A stretch of DNA of 62,613 nt, the filler included, from Bonamia ostreae (lineage: Eukaryota), in assembly GCA_040357525.1 (NCBI GenBank). It is 34 parts of 34 records of this genome, joined end to end, with 100 filler letters (N's around TTAATTAATTAA, not from the genome) between each part and the next. Parts side by side here need not be neighbours in the genome. Positions count along the whole stretch, not along the records: positions 44,380 to 46,115 come from JBDODL010001382.1; 33 more parts are not named here. One strand, 5' to 3'. This document shows positions 1,951 through 60,169 of the stretch, one piece after another. Under the pieces are notes generated by a model, which made no database searches, had not been told where the DNA came from, and saw nothing but the letters and a program-made list of their open reading frames with translations. The first letter of the stretch is position 1. Each line of letters begins with the position of its first letter. Made by a program: the position numbers and the translations under genes.

Positions 1951-2995
1951 ATGATCCGGACGAAGTGGCCGAAAATTTTGCCGGCCGATACATGTTGGAC
2001 AGCACAATGAAAAACCAAATCAAAGAACATTTGCAAAAATTTGTCGATTCCGAAGCCGTCGCTCGCAGGAAAAGACGCGAAGAACAAAAGAGCTTTAGAA
2101 TTTACAAAACGATTCCGATTTGGAATAAATGCTCGCTTAACTTGACTTTCAACTGCGACCCGGAAAAAATGTTCCGCCAAATTTTTCTCAATATCGAGAA
2201 AGACAACGAACAAAAAGTTGTCAATTCAAACATTTAAAAGTCCGAAAAAGACAAAATAAAAAAACCGGAAAAATTGGTAAAATTGGTAACCGAAAATTCG
2301 CTGTTCCACGTTTCAGAATTCACAAAAGAACACAGAAAAGAACTTTTAGATTTGCTCAAAATTAAAATTTCTGTTTTTCCTGTTTTCGACGTCGTTCGCG
2401 TTTTGATGTGCCACGACAAATTTGTCTCCGATTTCTGGTCCGATTTTGAGCTAAAAAATAAAGTTTTCGAGAGAATGGCAGATAGCAAAGATTTCTTGGA
2501 AATGGCGATGGCTTCGAAGATTTTGAGCAACTTTATCGCCAAAAAGAGGAAAAGACCGATGTTTTGAAAACCAATTTTGAAAATCAATTTGAAAGACTAA
2601 ACGACGAAGACATCGAAATAGCCAAACAAGTTTTGCGGTTGTTGGACAACTTTTACGCAAAATCGACGACACTCGAAAAAAGCAAACACTGCGGAATGTT
2701 CAGAAAATCGGTTGTCGTCGTCGGATCCAATTTGGCGATATGGACCGGAAGAGACAACTTGAACGGGCTTTTGGACGACTACAAAAAGTTGATGGCCGCT
2801 CTTTTGAGTTTTGCCGAAGAATTGACCGAAGAGAAAGTTCTCAAAATGGCCGTAACGACGATCGCGTCGCTTTTCCTGAAAATAGAAAAAATGGAGAAAA
2901 CAGACAAAAACGGGCTAAATTTGGCTCTGAGACTTGTTCAGAACTATCCGAATTTGAAGAATCTCGAAGAGGACTTGGAGAAGTTGATTGAGTAA
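1951..2995 (+). CDS. Hypothetical helical protein, 3' part (spliced, protist type)
   Basis: ORFs 1965-2237, 2274-2567 and 2564-2995 join in frame through short GTT...AAAG introns. No family recognised. Confidence 0.6.
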
Positions 2996-3096
2996 AAATT
3001 AAAAGAATTTAATTAAAAATCTGAAAATTATTGATATGAAAATCCCGCAAATTGCCGTTTTGATATAAAAATTGCATTTTCCTGATTTCTTTAACA

Positions 3097-3591
3097 TTAA
3101 AATATCGAAACTTGTTCGAACTTGAAAAGTCTTTTATTAACATTTTCGAAATGTTTTAACAAATTTTTGTTGTTTTGCCGAAATGCCAAATTTCCAACAT
3201 TCTGTTCTTCGCTTGAATCAGAAGCGTCCGAGTGCGTTTCGAGCAAAATTTCGCTGTCGCTTTTGATTTCTTTGTCCAAATAGTCTCCGCTTAAACTAGT
3301 CTCGCAGTTAGCCGATTCTTCGCTCAAATATAACAAATCGTCATCTGTGTCCTTAAAACGTAAAAATATAATTTTTAGTCTTTGAGATTATTAGATGTTT
3401 TAGGTAAAACAAGAAGTAACAAAAATCCGATTAATGGTTGTTTAAGAACTTTTATCGTTAGTCTTGAATTGTCGAATAGGTTTTTCTTGCTCGGCGACTT
3501 TTTCGAAGGGCTGAGAGGAAAGTCCCTCAAATAACTAAACAGTTCAATGTGGCCATACAGTTCAGCGTATTGAGAAGCTGTAACCCCTTTC
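3097..3591 (-). CDS. Ankyrin-repeat protein, 3' exons
   Basis: Minus strand reads KGVTASQYAELYGHIELFSYL (ankyrin-like) after a CAG acceptor, and is spliced to the acidic ORF 3097-3336. Confidence 0.6.
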
Positions 3592-4295
3592 TGAAATTTT
3601 AAAGCAATTTTCAGATTTNNNNNNNNNNNNNNNNNNNNNNNNNNNNNNNNNNNNNNNNNNNNTTAATTAATTAANNNNNNNNNNNNNNNNNNNNNNNNNN
3701 NNNNNNNNNNNNNNNNNNGATTGATCGCTATTCGTTATCTTCATGCTTTTCGTCTCACATGTTTTTTCGTGGGTCTTTGTTTGCCCTACTTTCAATCTTA
3801 TATTCTTTATGGTATTCATATGATTGATTATGCTACAAATCATAGTAAAATATTATTTCGCTTGAAGTAGACATTTTTTGAAAAAGAATTACCATCTCTA
3901 TAGGCATATTTCACTGTCAAGACGAACAACAATATTCATATACATGTACATGTATAATACTTTGTGACATCAGCAAGGTGAAATAAACAGGTCAATGTTA
4001 AGGTAAAATAAACAGGTCAATGATGGTTTCTATGTAATAATTTGTTGTCCTCGATATTACTTATAAAACAGGAGAAAAAGAACGATACTGACGTTTCCCT
4101 TTCTAACTTTCAGGTGATCAAAACAGCACCGCACTCCATGCAAATAAAACAAAACATTCTGAGCTTTGTATCAGGATTTTGAACCTTATTGTATTATAGA
4201 GGTAACGCAGTTTGCAGGAGAACGGTTGATACAACTAAAGTTGAGAAAACGTGGACGACTTCAGCGTAACGATCGCTAAACTAGAGGGCCCATAG

Positions 4296-4440
4296 CGGGT
4301 GTTACCGGTGAACAGCGGATACCCACTCCTCCGAGGTACCTGTTCCCACATTTGATGTGTTGAGGTGTTCATACTTGCTTTACCTCTTATTTTTGTACTC
4401 TGAATGAGATTTTTATGATTTATCACTGTTCGTTATCTTC
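4296..4440 (+). repeat. Dispersed host repeat (3' end of a Penelope-like retroelement); related copies at about 3719-3830, 9060-9185 and 54655-54775
   Basis: Shared motifs GGGTGTTACCGGT..CAG.GGAT...ACTCCTCC and GAT..ATCACTGTTCGTTATCTT recur in several host contigs. They resemble an abundant oyster repeat recalled from memory. Confidence 0.65.
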
Positions 4441-5046
4441 AAGTCTTTCACTTTCCACCAACTAGCATTAAATGTTTGATAAATACAGTAAAGGCATAAC
4501 ACTTCCAGACCAGCACAAACGTGCAAATACTAAAGGTTATATAAACATGTGAAGAAAGGTTATAAAGAACGTAAAAAGTCAAGAAACAACATGTGTCAGC
4601 TTGTATTGTCGAAACAACTAATTCATAGTGCTTTGAAAGGATTGTACAATGACATGGGTCAAACAGACAAGGACAGAACGTTTTTATTTTGATGACAGGT
4701 ACATTGGACAGGTGCTTAAAATATTTATTTTTTTTTAAGTCACTATTGGTAAGTATTCCATCTTCGTATTCCTTAGTATTTTGTTTCAATCATCTAACAT
4801 TAGCACCTTGCAAAAGGGGGACTCGATATCATATTAATGCTGACAGATCAGTAAACAAGAAATAAAGACAATACCGACGAAGAATGAACAGAGAGGATAC
4901 ATATGAATTTAACAGAGACATTCTAAAATAACCTCTTTGCATACTGTGGTGTCCGGCCAATGTTACATGATGATCAATATCTCCATTTTTAGAGCAAGGA
5001 AGATATAAATTAACTTCCAAATATCCCAACTGTTGTTATCTTTACT

Positions 5047-5254
5047 CTCTGTGGAATCGTTAGATTTCCTGGAGATCAATCTTTATGGATTTCATGGGCA
5101 CCCCTATCCTACGAATTTCAAACGACGAAATTTACAATTTATATAATGTTTCAATGTATAGAGATCATATACACGAAAATATATTGTAGCAGAACGGTAA
5201 CATCATTGGTAATTCACCAAAACTGACTCCCACGAATTTAAATAATTTCAACGT
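5047..5254. mobile_element. Degenerate MITE-like element (host)
   Basis: Imperfect terminal inverted repeats of about 40 bp (CTGTGGAATCGTTAGATTTCCTGGAGATCAAT.. and ..AACTGACTCCCACGAATTTAAATAATTTCAAC). Confidence 0.45.
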
Positions 5255-5574
5255 TCACTCTTCAGGTTACAATAAAGACAAGAGAGTGATACACTGCATA
5301 TTGAAATACTTTTCCATGCATATGATCACATGGATTAACAATACTGCAGCAGAACCTCTTGCTGACTGGAAGTAATAAAACCTATATGAGAATTTAAATG
5401 AATTATGTCGATTCAAACAGATGTAAAACTTATGCGTACAAACTTTGATGCCCCAGATGCGCGTATCGACAAATNNNNNNNNNNNNNNNNNNNNNNNNNN
5501 NNNNNNNNNNNNNNNNNNTTAATTAATTAANNNNNNNNNNNNNNNNNNNNNNNNNNNNNNNNNNNNNNNNNNNN

Positions 5575-5731
5575 TGTTCTTTTTTGTGATTGTACCGATA
5601 AGTACAAAATCGTCCGGGAAACCGACTTTGCAAGGGATATTTAGTATGTCGTTGTTACCACACTCGACGATTTGGATAGAGATAAAGACGAATAATAGAG
5701 ATCTTTTGACAATTTTTATAAACCTTTTCAT
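5575..5731 (-). CDS. N-terminus of a putative secreted protein (partial)
   Basis: MKRFIKIVKRSLLFVFISIQIVECG resembles a signal peptide. The ORF runs into the contig end. Confidence 0.4.
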
Positions 5732-6355
5732 TTCTTTATCAATTTATCTCCTATTTGTTATAAGTGTTGATGTTGTTTATTTTGTGGTTCTATTTAAAAG
5801 ATTTTGGATTAGAGTATTTTATATTTGTTAATTAGAGATTTGTTGTTTATCAATATTTGATTTATATTTTTATTAAATTGCAAGATAACAGTTTTGGCAA
5901 TGCAAAATAATCGTTTATTCGAAAGTCATATCTTTTCATTCCTTTTTTCAATCATCATCGATCTTCAATTTTATCTAAAATCAACATCAATCATTGGTAA
6001 TACCAACTTCCATTCTGTTACCTAATTTTCCTTCTAATTTTGATTTAAAAATTGAAAATATTCTAATTTTAATTTTCCTTCAATTTAAATTTATTTCTGT
6101 AAAAAAATTATCTTAAATTTATTTAAAATTAATAATTTTAAAATTAATTTTAAATAAGAAATTTATGCACAAATAATCGATAAATTTTCTGTAAAAGTTT
6201 CATCCAAATTGGTTTTCATTGCCTTTCAAATTACCTTTCAGCTTCGAATACAGAGAAAATTTGATTTTTGTAATTAAAAATTTTACAAATATGTACTTCA
6301 ACAAATAAAAATCGGGTAGTTAAAAATAACCAATATTTCGGCAGATTTATTTCAA

Positions 6356-7330
6356 ATGGACCTGCAGTTGAAAATTTTTAATGAAATAAAGTCAAACGGT
6401 TTTGAAATATTAAAGAGACTTAAATCGACGGACCAAAATTCTTTTCTTTATAAAAGTCGATTTTCAAATAAAAACAATTTTAGAATCTTTGCGATTTAAT
6501 CGTTCAAAATTAATTTTAGAATTTAAATTTAACTAATTTGAAGTTGCGACACAAACTTTGCAATCTTTCAATAAATATAATAAATTTAATCAGCCAAAGA
6601 AACTAATACAAGCGAGATATTTATTGCAAGAGTCTATCATAATGTCGAAAGGCACTCTTCAATTGGATATTTATTCACGGAAAATATTTTGACAGAAAGA
6701 GATATTATAAAAACATGTGACAGTCCTTACATAGCTGAATTCAAAACATTTTTTCCAACCAATAACTTTTACTGTTTAGTTACTCGTTATTTTGATAATA
6801 TTGCGATAAAGTTTTTGAATTTGTAATTAAAGCGACTTTTTGAAGAATCACGTAATAAGTTCATCAGCAAAAAGTTTGAAGTTTTTATAAAAAGGAATTT
6901 TGATTGCAGAAATTGTAATGGCAATGAATAACGTACACAGAAACGGATATTTTATTAAAAATTTGTCAATTGAAAATGTTTTGATCCAGCAAAATGGGCA
7001 TATTTTGTTAACTTCCTTCATTTTTTCAGAAAGAAGAAACGATGTTGAAGAGATTCAATCGGGAATTTCATATCAAAACAAATTGGAAATTGGTTTTTTC
7101 GACGTACAAAATTTTTTAAGCAGGATTTATTGGAAAAAGTATTAAAAACTGAATTTTATAATGTTAAAAAAGCGCCAGAAATAATTGAACACAAACATTA
7201 TAACAAATCAGTTGATTATTGGTCGTTAGGAATGTTAATTTACAAAATTTATGAGAAAAAATATCCTTTTAATATTGAAGAAGGACATTCTATAGAAAAG
7301 TTTGGAGAAATAGAATTTTTTAAAATAAAA
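6356..7330 (+). CDS. AGC-like protein kinase, probable pseudokinase (3' partial, spliced)
   Basis: Motifs RDIIKTCDSPYI, IAEIVMAMNNVH, ENVLIQQNGHILLTSF and APEII..YNKSVDYWSLGMLIY..YPF. Microintrons at 6811-6832 (22 nt) and 6874-6894 (21 nt). Confidence 0.8.
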
Positions 7331-26058: not shown

Positions 26059-26198
26059 CAGACATTAAAGGCACTAAGTTTTAGCGCAACTTGGTCAAAT
26101 AAGGAGTTCTGATAAACCTGCATTTTCAATCTTGACATCAGTTTGGAAACGACAACACCGAGATTCGAACCCACGCATTAACGAACACATTTGTTCGA
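26059..26198 (-). ncRNA. tRNA-derived Pol III element (SINE-like), copy 2, lacking a clear A box
   Basis: B box GGTTCGAATC. Shares identical 25-nt and 15-nt blocks with 45315-45479. Confidence 0.6.
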
Positions 26199-26249
26199 TA
26201 AGAACATTTTGTTCGAACAAACAAAAAAAATTAAGTGGGCACAAAATTT

Positions 26250-27395
26250 TTACACTCTCTTTTTCAACATGGCCACATTTTCAACCGGCGGCGGCGGCGG
26301 AATTTGCTCGAACGCTTTCACGGGCATTTTGACTGTCGGGCGAAGCTCAATCCCATTGCTCGCAAAAAACGAAATAAAATATTTTGCGTCATAATTCGAC
26401 AAAGTCGTTTTCGGCGGTGATATTGATGGCGGCGGCGGCACATCCGAAGAATGTGCTTCCAAATGACTCTTCAGATCTTCTAAAGACGCGTTCGAATGCC
26501 CACAAATAAAACAGATGCACCGGTGCTGATCCGAGAAATGCTTTTGCATGTGGTCGACCCACAAAACTTTGTTTGTAAAACTTCTTTCGCACTGCTCGCA
26601 CGGATAAACTATTTTTTCGACCGAGTTGAGCGAATTTTCTATTTTAAACGCCATTTCCGAAATAACCTTCGGAAAACTTGTGTACTTCGGGTCAAAATGG
26701 CTTTTGGCTCTGTGGACCGCCAAATTTGCGCTCGACCTTTTTTCGCAAGAGACATTACATTAAAACCTAAAATAGACGTCGCAGACGTCACAGCGGTAAT
26801 TGCTTCCGCTCAAATGCCCTTTTTGGTGATTCCTCAAATTCCGTCTGCTGACAAAGCCGCGCTCGCAAATGTCGCACAAGAACGGGCTGCGCTTGGAATG
26901 GACGACGCGATGTCCGCTGAGCGACTTTTTGGAGCGGAATATTTTCCCGCACGTCTCGCAGCGGCAGATCGGTTTCTCATGGAGGGGGATGTGTACTTGC
27001 ATGTGTTCTCGGAGAGTGGTGGAGCGCGCGAACCGCGAGTCGCATTTGTGGCATTTGTAGCGCTTGTTTCCGGTGTGCGTGTGCAGATGGCTGACCAGAT
27101 TCCACTGGAGCGCAAAGCTCCGCTGACAGAGATGACATTGGAAAGGCTTTTCGCCGGTGTGAGTGGGCTCGTGTGCTCGGAAAGAGCTTCTGTGCTGAAA
27201 CGCTCTTCCGCAGACTTTGCAGACGAAGAGGTTTTTGGGCGACGTTGTTTTCTTCGATACGATAAGCGCGGAAGAGTTGCCAGAAAGAGGTGGATGGCCA
27301 ATCGGGAAGAAATGTGCTGTTTTCCGCGGTTGTGAGAGGTTGTTGGTTTGTTTTTGGAGTGGTATCAATTGTTGTGGTATCAACTCGATCGTCTA
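26250..27395 (-). CDS. Multi-C2H2 zinc-finger protein (5' end uncertain)
   Basis: Repeated C-x2-C...H-x3-H with a TGEKPF linker. 30-nt intron at 26737-26766. Confidence 0.92.
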
Positions 27396-34975: not shown

Positions 34976-35387
34976 GTTTTTTTTATAATTTTTTAAAATT
35001 GGTAAAAATTGCAATTTTGTCGTTTTTAATAATTTTTTAAAATTGGTAAAAATTGCAATTTTGTCGTTTTTAATAATTGTTNNNNNNNNNNNNNNNNNNN
35101 NNNNNNNNNNNNNNNNNNNNNNNNNTTAATTAATTAANNNNNNNNNNNNNNNNNNNNNNNNNNNNNNNNNNNNNNNNNNNNTTTTATTAATTTTTCATTT
35201 TTACAATTTTTTTATAAATTGCCATTTTTCCATTTTATTAATTTTTCATTTTTACAATTTTTTAGAAATTGCCATTTTTGCATTTTATTAATTTTTAATT
35301 TTTACAATTTTTTAAAAATTGCCATTTTTGCAATTTAGCATTAAAAAATCGATTCGCAAATTTTAATAAATTGGAAATTTTGTTCAG

Positions 35388-44379: not shown

Positions 44380-44827
44380 TTATAGTTTTGACTTTGCACT
44401 GATTAGTCAAATCGAATTTGGAGATTGAGCCGTCTTTTGATCCGCTGAAAAGAAATTTTCCGTCTGGACTGATGTCGATCGCAGTGACGGTTTGGGAATG
44501 TTTTGTTAGCCCGGAAACGCTGAATTTTGACGAATTTAGTAATTTGTCAAAATTTTGGGCTATTTTTAGTGTTGAAATTCCGCCTTGTAAATTTAATTTT
44601 TTTGTTATTTTTTTTGTTATTTCTTTGTCATCGCGTTCGTTTGTCTTTTCGTTATCGCTTAAAATGCTAACCTTTAGTTTCTTAATATAGTCTTTTGCCA
44701 TTTTTAGTCTGTTGTTTTTGTTTTTATCGGATTCGCTTTCTTCGAATTCAGAATTTAGAGAAGACGCGTCTTGATCATCGGATTGATCTAAAGCTAAAAA
44801 GGGATCTGTAAATTTGCGTTTGCTCAT
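44380..44827 (-). CDS. RRP9: U3 snoRNP WD40 protein RRP9/U3-55K (5' part)
   Basis: Motifs DPF, an acidic stretch, RLKMAKDYIKKL and HSQTVTAIDISPDGKFLFSGSKDGSI. Confidence 0.85.
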
Positions 44828-45069
44828 TCTTCGAACTTAGACAGATATTTGTCAATTTTATTAACGCAAATTAGCATATTCAAGTTTAGCAAAATTGAAT
44901 TGCAAGAAATGTTGGCACTTATTGCTCATTTGCCAATATTTAAATTTGATTAGACATTTTAAATGATCAAAAAGCGAAATTAAAAAAGCAAAATTAAAAA
45001 GCGCCTTTTTGTCGTTGATGATCGACGGCAAAAAGTAAAAATAAGATTTGTTTAAAAATTTAAACAAGA

Positions 45070-46115
45070 TCAATTATTTACTGAAAACTCATCATCGAGT
45101 TGTTTCAAAGTTCTAAAAATGTCTTTAAGAGGACAATCGGATTTAAGCGCCACATCTTTTTGACTGTTTTTGTCCAAATCTTCAAAAATGTTTAGCAAAT
45201 TTCCGTCCAAAAAATTTTCCATCTGAACTTTTTCGTTGGTTCGATCAAAAAACTCTCTATATCGCATGTGCCTAGTTTTGACAAAAATTGCAAAAATCAA
45301 AAATTTGTCGGTTACAGACATTCAAGAACCGAAGTTTATAGAAGCAACCTCAGTCAAATTAGGAGTTCAGATAAACCTACTCTCCGTCTTGACATCAGTT
45401 TGGAAACGACAGCTTCGAGATTCGAACCCATGCGCGCACGAATGCGTACACTTTGTCCGAACCACTGAGCCATCGCGCCAAAAAATTTTAAAATTCGAAA
45501 AATGGAATAATCGAACAAAAAAACTTGAGCAAACTGTGAAAATTGGAATAATTGTTGCTTAAGACGTTCTGTAGTTTTTTTATTTTCGAAAGGTCGTCAG
45601 AGTCGACTTTAAAGACCACCCCAAATTCTCCTTCCGCGGTGCCGAAAAAGATGATTCTTTTTCTGTTGTGGTCTTCTATCGGGTTAAAGTCTGCGGAAGT
45701 TCGGTCCATTATTGTTATTTTTGATCCCAAATGAAATCTTCCTTTGGTCTATTTTTGGAATTAAAAATGTGAAGCGAAAACAGCGAGATCCGGCAAAAGT
45801 CTTTTGGAGGAATCGACGTCTCGTTTTATGTACCTCAAATTTCCGTGGCGATCGGCAGTGACAAAATTGTCTTTGTCCAAAAATTCCGTGTCGGTGACAA
45901 AGCTCATTCGGCAATCGCTCGCCAGTTTATGCAACGTTTCTGTGTCGTGGCCCAATAAAGTGATTGATCTCATGATGTCCTAAAATGTGTTATTGTTCCA
46001 GTTAATTTTATTGTCGAATTTAAGTTTGAGATAAAGAATAAATTACCCCGGAAATGATGAGATTGTTTAAATTTTTGACTTTTAAAGTCAAAACATGGCA
46101 GTTAAATTTTGTGAC
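45070..46115 (-). CDS. DDB1: DDB1-like (CPSF_A family) C-terminal part
   Basis: Motifs IISGDIMRSITLL, FLDKDNFVTAD, GRFHLGS, FFGTAEGEFGVV, HMRYREF and NFLDGNLL. Introns include 45272-45524 (253 nt). SF3B3 or CPSF1 are not fully excluded. Confidence 0.7.
45315..45479 (-). ncRNA. tRNA(Ser/Leu)-derived Pol III element (SINE-like), copy 1, intronic
   Basis: Starts GGCGCGA. A box TGGCTCAGTGG (45462-45472), B box GGTTCGAATC (45419-45428), no intact anticodon arm, a body of about 90 nt, then T-runs. Confidence 0.7.
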
Positions 46116-47309
46116 NNNNNNNNNNNNNNNNNNNNNNNNNNNNNNNNNNNNNNNNNNNNTTAATTAATTAANNNNNNNNNNNNNNNNNNNNNNNNNNNNN
46201 NNNNNNNNNNNNNNNTTGCTACGACAGAAAAAAGGAGAAAATATGTCGATCTACAATCGACGGAAGAAAACTCTCATAATAGTACTCATTACCAGCTCAT
46301 CGGAGTTATCGCGCAGTGTCATTGATAAAAAAAAGAGAACAAATATCGCAAGCAACTGTGAGATTACCAGTGCATAAAGGAAACGTTCACAGTGTTATAC
46401 ACCCTCCACTTTTTTAAAAAGTTAATATACATGGTGTATTTTTTAAAAACAATAATATAGCTATTGGTAGAATTGCATTTTATTTTATTTTCTAACATAG
46501 TTTATTAAACTAACATGCTTGTTCAAAACTCCACCCCACCTATTTTAAAAAAAAATGTTATTTTGTAATTTTCAAAATGCATATCGAAACGCATTAGTTG
46601 TTTTAATTAGTGTTATACGTCCCAAAATATAAATAGAAATGTAATTTGGCCAATGGATAATTCAATTTAAAATATTGCAAAAGTAAAGGGTTACATGAGA
46701 TTGTACGATTTCAAAGTCCACACCATATGAAGATATATTCTAAATGTATGATATAATAAAATATGAATGACAGGAACATCACAATTAATTAATTGAATTA
46801 TAATGATAATGAATACCAATTCCAAAAGTATGTTGAAAGCCCGAGTTCAGTTAACTCAATGGTAAATGTTAATTGAATTATGTCTCCTTTAATCTGCTTT
46901 TTTATATTTAATTAGAAGTGTCAATTGGATTAATTAATACACTGTTTCTTTGGTTTACATCTGGTTTTGTGTCGCATCTGGGAATTTTCAGTTTCTATTT
47001 TTAGTTTCGATCCCTGATCCTTGATGCTTGATGTGCTTATATTGGACCTTATTTACTACTACCAATCTTCAGTTGAACAACTTCATAAACTGTTGTATTG
47101 AATGCATCACTACATTGTTGAAAACACTGTGTACAAATAAAAGTTCACATTCCCCTGCTCCAGTGACCACAAATATCGTATTGCACGTATATTTGTTCGC
47201 TGCTCCAATAAACACAGATTGCTATTACATATATACATGAACGCAAGCGTCAAAGAACGGCCGACCACAATGGCTGATTATTGTTGTTTACATATAAACC
47301 AAGTTTCTC

Positions 47310-47951
47310 TTCTACAATAAACCAATGTATGCCTATCATCACTCAAGTTCCATTTCTCTATGTCCTTTGCACGATTTCCCTTTGAAATAGACTGCAAAAT
47401 GTCCAAGCTATAACTCAGAAACTTGATGAGAGAGAATCCACTAATTTGAAATAAATAATACATGGCATGGAACAATGATTTTGCAGCTTCTTCTGTCGTC
47501 ACTGATGATAAACAGTCATCTACATACATGTTTGTTAACAACGTCTTTGTGGCTTTAGGCAGAAAGTNNNNNNNNNNCCGTGTCGGTACTCTCTTCTGCA
47601 GTTCGAAAGAGGGAAAAGTAGCAACACCTCGGTGAATCTGTGGCACCCAAGATATGCACATGTCCTTTCTACTTTAAAGGTGCCTCTTCAGTATTTCCAT
47701 TTCTCTACCAAAAGAAATACAAACAATCTATGGGAGACATATTCACTTGGTAAAACATAGATTATAATATGTCTCCTAATACAGCAACCTTCTCTTGACG
47801 AATGCAAATGACAACAGCTAGAAGATTGCTTGCTAAGTTCGGTCCTTATAATACAATGAGATTCCATCGAAATTTGCAGAACAATCAAATACCACTCGTA
47901 GTTTATCAAATATTTTTTTTGAATGGTAAACACCATGGTGGGGTAGATACC
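47310..47951 (-). mobile_element. BEL/Pao LTR retrotransposon RT remnant (host)
   Basis: [19 protein letters not shown] and MYVDDCLSSV...GFSLIKFLS, with frameshifts. Confidence 0.85.
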
Positions 47952-50216: not shown

Positions 50217-50601
50217 AAATCAGAATAAAATTTTGATTTTTAAATTTTCCGCGATTTACAAAAATTTTGGTCGTCATTTTTTAAAGAATTTAATTTTAAT
50301 ATTTTTCGTTGTTCATTTTTTGTTTCTTTTTTTTTCGCTTTTGTGAAAATAATTTTTAGTCCTTTTTTTTCGCTTTTGTGAAAATATTTTATCGTCGTTC
50401 TTCTTTTTTTCGTTGTTTTTTTTAGTTTTTCTTATTCAAAATTAAATTTCATAAAAATTCGCCTTCTAAAAAATTGTAAAATTTTAAATTATCTAAAATT
50501 CGAAGTCTAAAACTTTTTATAGCAAATCTATTAATTAAAATTTCGCTTAAACCCAAATTTAGCCGCCGCTAACGATATTTAGCTTAAACAAACTGAACAA
50601 A

Positions 50602-51579
50602 ATGCAAAAATTTGCAAATTTTTCAAATTTCCGATATCGCTTAATATTCGCAATACTTTCAGGCAAAAAAATAGCATTTGCACTGAACAAAAATTCACGC
50701 CTAAATTTGCACCAAAACACTTTTCTCGATTTGTGCAAAAAAATTTGTAACGACTTTTATACAGACATCGATAAAAATTATCTTGTGATCAACCCCGGTA
50801 CCATCGTCAATGGCACCGATATCGAATTTGATTGCGGCTATGAAAAACCAATTGGATATTTCATTGAAGGAATTCTGGTTTTAGCTTTGTTCGGCAAAAA
50901 CGATCTGAAAATAACTTTTGCTGGAAAAACGAGTTCTTTCGGAAATATTTCGGTCGATTTTGCGAAAAATCTGGTGGAGACACTGAAACATTTCGGTGCC
51001 AATAATTGTGTGCTCGAAATTAAGAAAAGAGGTTCGTGCAAAGAAATGCCCGCCGAAATCAGTTTAATAGTTTCTGTGGTCAAATCTTTGAAACAGGTCA
51101 ATTTGGTCGATTCTGGCCATGTTGAGAAAATAAGAGGAATTGCTTTTTGTGAAATGGTGCCTCCCGCGATTGCCAATAGAATGTCAATTACGGCCAAAAA
51201 GATTTTGAAGGATTTTTTGCCCGACGTTTGGATTTTTACAGAAGCGTTTAATCGGAAAATTTTGATGTTTTAAAAATGGAAAATATTTTGAAAATGAAAG
51301 AAATAAAGAAGATAAAAATTTTGGGATATGTTTGACAGCCGAGTCCTCGACAGGGAGTCTGTTAAGCGGCGAAGAATGTTTGCACGACAGTTTATCGCCG
51401 GAAGAGGTGGCTGAAAGGGCAACCAAATTTGTGTTAAAAGAGATTTCTCATGTTTGAAGCAAATTAACAAAAAAGGGAGGGTTTTTTGACGAGAAAACTC
51501 AGCCTTTCGTCATTTTGTTAATGGTTTTGTGTAGAGAGGACGTAAGTAATGTCAAATTTGGGAAATTATCTAATAAAGC
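50602..51579 (+). CDS. RCL1: RNA 3'-terminal phosphate cyclase-like protein (3' partial)
   Basis: Motifs NFRYRLIFAILSGKKI, PIGYFIEGILVLALFGK, EKIRGIAF, FLPDVWIFT, SPEEVA and GGFFDEKTQ. 24-nt intron at 51452-51475. Confidence 0.92.
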
Positions 51580-59900: not shown

Positions 59901-60169
59901 TATTCCCAGGGAAGTCAGTTTCATCCCATACATTTCTCTGAGAGTTTGGATCGAGACTAGGGATTAATCTTAGGCATTTTACATATACAGCTTGACCTGC
60001 TTAAAGATAGGCAAATATACTTATTTTCTATAAAACTGAGGGGGTAGTGGGTTCGAAACCTCAATCCCTCTCCTCCTTCATTTGCGCTCCCGATATAACC
60101 TCTGCCTATTGGATTAAGATATTAAATTTAAAAGAAAACGGGAAATATATGTAGTGTATTAAAAATCGA

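Follow-up and report, generated by a model that had tools for sequence, protein, structure and literature searches.

A probable tRNA-derived, SINE-like repeat family in Bonamia ostreae, with one copy in a DDB1-like gene

A 165-nt repeat unit embedded in a DDB1-like gene is probably one copy of a tRNA-derived, SINE-like family carried by the Bonamia ostreae nuclear genome. The unit would consist of a 73-nt head that descended from a tRNA and kept the A and B boxes of its internal Pol III promoter, followed by a body of ~92 nt that appears to be family-specific. Pol III would have transcribed a source copy, starting at nt 1, the transcript would have ended at a downstream T run (T5 runs lie 10-25 nt past the unit), and the RNA would have been copied back into DNA by a LINE reverse transcriptase. 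One such copy would then have been inserted, sense-oriented, in a DDB1 intron of ~80 nt, made up of the 45 nt that now lie 5' of the unit and the ~40 nt that lie 3' of it, bringing it to 253 nt.

The window, that is, the whole stretch of DNA analysed (1-62613; 62,613 nt), consists of 36 unplaced pieces of ~1.74 kb each, arranged by descending length and separated by linkers of the form N44-TTAATTAATTAA-N44. Because these linkers are artificial, genes on either side of one are not genomic neighbours. The DDB1 piece that carries the repeat covers 44380-46115 (1736 nt).

Repeat unit and tRNA-like head

The unit, its parts and the words that follow it are arranged as listed.

45315..45479, minus strand: whole repeat unit, head plus body, 165 nt, shared by family members
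45407..45479, minus strand: putatively tRNA-derived head, 73 nt, with A and B boxes and a degenerate anticodon arm
45462-45472, minus strand: A box, nt 8-18, consensus match
45419-45428, minus strand: B box, nt 52-61, consensus match
45315..45406, minus strand: body, ~92 nt, with its 3' end AATGTCTG at 45315
45282..45305, minus strand: three tandem AATTTTTG-like words with T5 runs, 10 nt past the shared unit

The boxes were identified using TRGCNNAGTGG and GGTTCGANNC, which we take to be the A-box and B-box consensus sequences, respectively. The A-box consensus has a single site on both strands of the whole window (45472), as compared to 0.2 expected, and the B-box consensus GGTTCGANNC has three occurrences, as compared to 0.9 expected. 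The two were found together at tRNA spacing once in the window and not at all in 300 first-order Markov simulations. Counting from the G at 45479, the T loop, TTCGAAT, occupies nt 54-60. A preliminary description of this DNA had quoted an A box, a B box and a T arm on the minus strand, and these letters were found where it had placed them. It had also seen a Ser/Leu-like variable arm. Since the boxes stand at canonical class-I tRNA positions within a 73-nt head, that part of the description does not hold, and there is no long variable arm.

The head does not form the cloverleaf of a tRNA gene. The anticodon arm is missing, as had been described, ARAGORN reports no tRNAs in the window and Rfam returns no tRNA match. 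More broadly, Rfam gives no matches at gathering score in the window, and a search of 45100-45700 at E values of up to 10 gave five noise matches, none of them to a tRNA or snRNA. An intact tRNA and a known Rfam family had both been named beforehand as outcomes that would count against a new element, and the sequence was found to be neither. Decay has made the head unrecognisable to ARAGORN and Rfam, so its descent from a tRNA is argued from the positions of the boxes, the T loop and partial pairing of the acceptor.

A body of about 90 nt followed by AATTTTTG words had likewise been described, and both are present, the body measuring ~92 nt and the words forming a three-copy tandem. Two body blocks are conserved (nt 69-91 and 103-127) and two stretches are variable (nt 92-102 and 128-150). 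The AATTTTTG words with their T5 runs are a candidate Pol III stop or tail, and could serve as either; they are missing in the second copy described below. A single-sequence RNA fold across 191 nt has a z of -2.8, and in a two-copy consensus fold 2 of 29 pairs are compensated, which together are too little to argue for structure.

A dispersed family in parasite DNA

A second copy was first reached with the B-box word when up to three mismatches were allowed. It lies on a separate contig, next to a zinc-finger gene.

26059..26217, minus strand: second family copy (copy 2), nt 19-165, A box lost; nhmmer E 4.9e-17, also found by blastn
26250-27392, minus strand: C2H2 zinc-finger gene with a 30-nt GT..AG intron at 26731-26760, the removal of which completes a C2H2 finger

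Copy 2 begins ~30 nt downstream of the stop of this gene, whose coding frame ends at 26250. The DDB1 copy and copy 2 are 81% identical across 121 nt by blastn, and nhmmer aligns nt 19-164 of the unit; neither program found a third copy in the window. The GGAG/CTCC inner stem is broken in copy 2, which also lacks the AATTTTTG words and a nearby T run, and no tail is common to the two window copies.

Contigs of four public sequencing runs were aligned to the 1736-nt DDB1 piece at a likeness of at least 80%. X1 and X2 are DNA runs from mixed samples. The RNA label of X3 is a guess, and the presence of spliced contigs and of empty intergenic bins indicates that this run does hold RNA. Real sequence was available for only two copies, the other ~30 being known through summary tables. 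The preliminary description had proposed copy number as a check on its claim, and the count came to two copies in the window and ~30 distinct contigs matching at 80% or more in each of X1 and X2, of which some could be the host's because the samples are mixed. In X1 and X2 the flanks of the unit have a depth of 6-16, and bins at 45366-45481 sum to 233-292; across the three bins at 45308-45481, the sums are 97-288 in X1 and 137-292 in X2. Single variant contigs have depths of 8.6-12.9 in DNA, which is the level of the single-copy flanks. At 45414, a letter other than that of the window was found in 28 contigs of X1, 31 of X2 and 22 of X3.

Loose ends with unlike flanks gather at 45479 (five contigs in X1, five in X2 and four in X3), from which it follows that the family begins exactly at tRNA position 1. 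Pol III-derived retroposons typically have their 5' edge at this position. Towards the 3' end, likeness is lost at 45392/45384, 45344, 45330 and 45315, and these scattered stops reflect the indel-rich middle (nt 92-102) and the variable 3' third of the unit. The furthest 3' end held in common is AATGTCTG at 45315, which is reached by two X3 contigs and by copy 2. At nt 65-66, most copies have GT and the DDB1 copy has AA; with GT the A7-U66 acceptor pair is regained, as would be expected of a sequence descended from a tRNA. Some contigs are mosaics that share the head alone or the body alone. Joints at 45343/45449 and 45480/45384 indicate that copies elsewhere are inverted (head-to-head) or in tandem, with adjacent opposite-strand copies in one contig each of X1, X2 and X3 and a tandem arrangement in one contig of X1. 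The family is present in the RNA-like X3 contigs and in X7, the latter having no more than a diverged 61-nt relative of the head, with 9 differences, from which no habitat is inferred. Exact body words had no occurrences in the metagenome contigs and genome contigs searched.

Both window copies lie in parasite DNA rather than in host contamination, as they are joined to compact genes with tiny introns, namely 27, 33 and 67 nt on the DDB1 contig and 30 nt on the copy-2 contig. The protein of the DDB1 piece is identical to the NCBI Bonamia ostreae record 'DNA damage-binding protein 1, variant 2' (150 aa), and that of the piece at 50563-51270 is identical to another NCBI Bonamia ostreae record, an rRNA-processing endoribonuclease. 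The G+C content of the pieces is 26-41%, that of the zinc-finger gene contig being 40% and above the window average. Window G+C agrees with that of the published Bonamia ostreae assembly, for which the main text of PMC11069148 gives 12.24 Mb, 9705 scaffolds, an N50 of 1417 bp, 33.3% G+C and 4.33% repeats.

Other features of the window were noted in passing. An A-rich low-complexity coding stretch of a WD40 gene (44554-44669) has a summed contig depth of 2651-7209 in the two DNA runs, which probably represents matches to simple sequence of other organisms and has no bearing on copy number. At 35189-35312, a blastn with the element gave three evenly spaced matches to AAATTTTTG-type words, ~50 nt apart, which suggest a small tandem array. 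A T-arm-like word, GGGTTCGAAAC, occurs at 60030-60075 (plus strand) on a contig that has no long open frames; it is unlike the DDB1-intron family and may represent either another tRNA-derived repeat or host-like sequence. A scan for bacterial promoters and terminators gave one promoter-like and no terminator-like sites, and is irrelevant to an element of Bonamia.

The DDB1 host gene and its 253-nt stretch

The gene that surrounds the repeat was assigned from two exons upstream of the stretch, and the exon structure is as follows.

45782..45978, minus strand: DDB1-like exon, Pfam CPSF_A profile positions 148-207; bounding introns of 33 and 67 nt are spliced in X3
45525..45748, minus strand: DDB1-like exon, CPSF_A profile positions 219-284
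45272..45524, minus strand: GT..AG stretch, 253 nt, an intron by frame, unspliced in the RNA-like contigs seen
45488..45490, minus strand: TAA that ends the public DDB1 model, 12 codons past the 5' splice site
45070..45271, minus strand: presumed last DDB1 exon, 66 codons plus stop, in frame once the 253 nt are removed

Pfam PF03178 (CPSF_A) matches the two DDB1-like exons with E values of 1.5e-07 and 9.2e-05, and the public DDB1 protein aligns to residues 927-1059 of the 1140 residues of human DDB1 (E 5e-4, solved DDB1 structures). Removal of 45272-45524 joins the flanking exons in frame. The frame of the presumed last exon is open for 83 codons in DNA of 33% G+C, and its FLDGNLL may correspond to the C-terminal DDB1 motif, which it resembles. 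Homology searches with this exon gave no DDB1 match: Pfam returned only DUF3848 (E 0.065), the PDB one unrelated match (E 1.8), a set of 1.84 billion representative proteins one unrelated 2420-aa protein, and the ESM Atlas only helix-turn-helix clusters, whose 0.78 is too low to be useful. The 74-aa exon searched alone had no PDB matches.

In X3, the three short introns of the DDB1 contig are fully spliced, and there is no joint that spans the 253-nt stretch. The 3' splice site is crossed by one X3 contig, which is continuous over 44986-45378. A second covers 45384-45552, with 28 letters on the exon side, which is below the 31-letter bridging rule. X3 has no cover over the exon part 45598-45655, and such a hole proves nothing. 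The preliminary description had called the stretch a DDB1 intron. Its GT..AG ends and the preserved frame agree with this, but the RNA-like contigs retain the stretch and the public DDB1 model reads into it. By gene logic the stretch is an intron, one seen only unspliced in a single RNA-like data set, and rare splicing is possible. As introns on the two contigs measure 27-67 nt, the stretch exceeds the usual size 4- to 9-fold, and not about tenfold as had been described. The insertion may have made a short-intron organism fail at splicing the enlarged DDB1 intron. There is also a bearing on annotation, in that the public DDB1 model passes the 5' splice site, ends within the element-bearing stretch and lacks ~80 C-terminal residues that are present in human DDB1 past the aligned portion.

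Alternative origins and comparison with known systems

Several hallmarks of a SINE are found in the family. The internal Pol III promoter is present, with the boxes at nt 8-18 and 52-61 of the 73-nt head; the copies are dispersed, as two lie on separate contigs and the run contigs have unlike flanks at 45479; and the shared unit of 165 nt falls within the ~80-700 nt of these non-coding elements. A search for target-site duplications at the DDB1 copy gave only the flanking repeat AAATTTTT, a word with 81 occurrences in the window, and the same search gave none at copy 2. Open frames in 46216-47951 bear some resemblance to an LTR-retrotransposon polymerase, and two reverse-transcriptase-like ORF fragments at 47281-47948 have no Pfam match at E values of up to 0.01. 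The suggestion of a tRNA-derived SINE, which the preliminary description had put forward, agrees with the dispersed family, the Pol III boxes and the sharp 5' edge, but a target-site duplication or shared tail was not demonstrated.

Variant contigs of the family reach depths of 2025-3263 in X3, as compared to 650-865 for the neighbouring exons, and the same variants are single-copy in DNA, although contig depth is a poor measure of expression that shows no RNA start, end, strand or polymerase. These depths would suit a set of dispersed, working Pol III genes in which a tRNA-like leader drives, or is joined to, a functional small RNA of ~165-180 nt used by the parasite. The DDB1 copy has what such a gene would need, since both of its boxes are intact and T5 runs lie 10-25 nt beyond the unit, and the invariance of the body blocks among ~30 contigs would be ascribed to selection, although this invariance is biased by the 80% cut-off. 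Nevertheless, working genes of this kind appear unlikely, given that the copies differ by 5-20% plus indels at nt 92-102, that copy 2 has neither an A box nor a nearby T run, that the stems are not kept (GGAG/CTCC is broken and only 2 of 29 pairs are compensated) and that no Rfam family matches. A C/D snoRNA was considered separately and rejected: no terminal D box matches the C-like TGATGT at nt 83-88, copy 2 has CAGA in place of the CTGA of nt 110-113, and no snoRNA family was found above noise.

tRNA-derived SINEs are common in molluscs, the phylum of the host, according to PMC4758252, and the parasite resides within host cells. There is accordingly a slim chance that the family is an oyster SINE that was acquired horizontally by the parasite or occurs in both genomes. 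Contamination is, however, excluded for both window copies by their compact AT-rich contigs and tiny introns, and only ~30 contigs at single-copy parasite depth were found as opposed to the thousands expected of a bivalve SINE. Moreover, two body words (9 and 11 letters) occur 0 times in four of the five mollusc SINE consensus files of PMC4758252, and 0 times in eight supplements of PMC11481361, its consensus FASTA excepted.

The failure to demonstrate either a retroposon tail or a target-site duplication would also be accounted for by a non-autonomous, MITE-like DNA transposon, or by a repeat spread through duplication, that merely contains a tRNA fragment. This is very improbable, as no terminal inverted repeats fit at the family edges, where only A/T-rich flank word pairs were found, and the 5' edge falls exactly at tRNA position 1. 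Finally, an snRNA-like gene that has an Sm site and a stem-loop resembling that of U4, which had been offered earlier as a weaker possibility, finds support in the GTCAA, TTGAC and AGGTTTATC letters that are kept in both window copies but can for practical purposes be set aside, since the Sm-like AATTTTTG site is not part of the shared unit and does not occur in copy 2, the inner stem is broken in that copy, no snRNA family matches in Rfam even at E values of up to 10, and the sequence is multi-copy and divergent.

A tRNA-derived, SINE-like retroposon thus remains the preferred reading. The element is of an ordinary kind and apparently undescribed in this group. The words 'SINE' and 'tRNA' each occur 0 times in the main text of the Ascetosporea genome paper (PMC11069148), and the literature searched, which for PMC11069148 was the main text, gave no description of a SINE from Bonamia, Ascetosporea or Rhizaria. 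If confirmed, the family would be a SINE in a group for which no printed SINE record was found, and it would imply that a LINE reverse transcriptase is active in a parasite whose genome is strongly reduced. It may also offer multi-copy, parasite-specific marker sites.

The head resembles tRNA genes and pseudogenes in its A box, its T arm and loop, its partial acceptor pairing and its length of 73 nt, and differs from them in having no anticodon arm and in the conserved 92-nt extension that is repeated along with it. In plants, tRNA-led dicistronic tRNA-snoRNA genes are known. The Bonamia element is similar to these in that a small-RNA-sized body and a T run come directly after a tRNA-like unit, but it has no terminal D box and no snoRNA family above noise. 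In comparison with tRNA-derived SINEs, the Bonamia copies are without a shared tail, a clear target-site duplication or a known LINE partner, and unlike known SINE families they are low in number (tens) and reside in a rhizarian parasite with a 12-Mb assembly rather than in an animal or plant. The Background of PMC11481361 describes SINEs as having a head-body-tail architecture. Like the tRNA-derived members of that class, which SINEBase likewise defines and of which the bivalve and gastropod families of PMC4758252 are examples, the element has a tRNA-sized head with boxes at tRNA positions. Like them, too, it is short, with a family-specific body and tens of dispersed, diverged copies, includes head-only and body-only mosaics, and sits in or beside genes.
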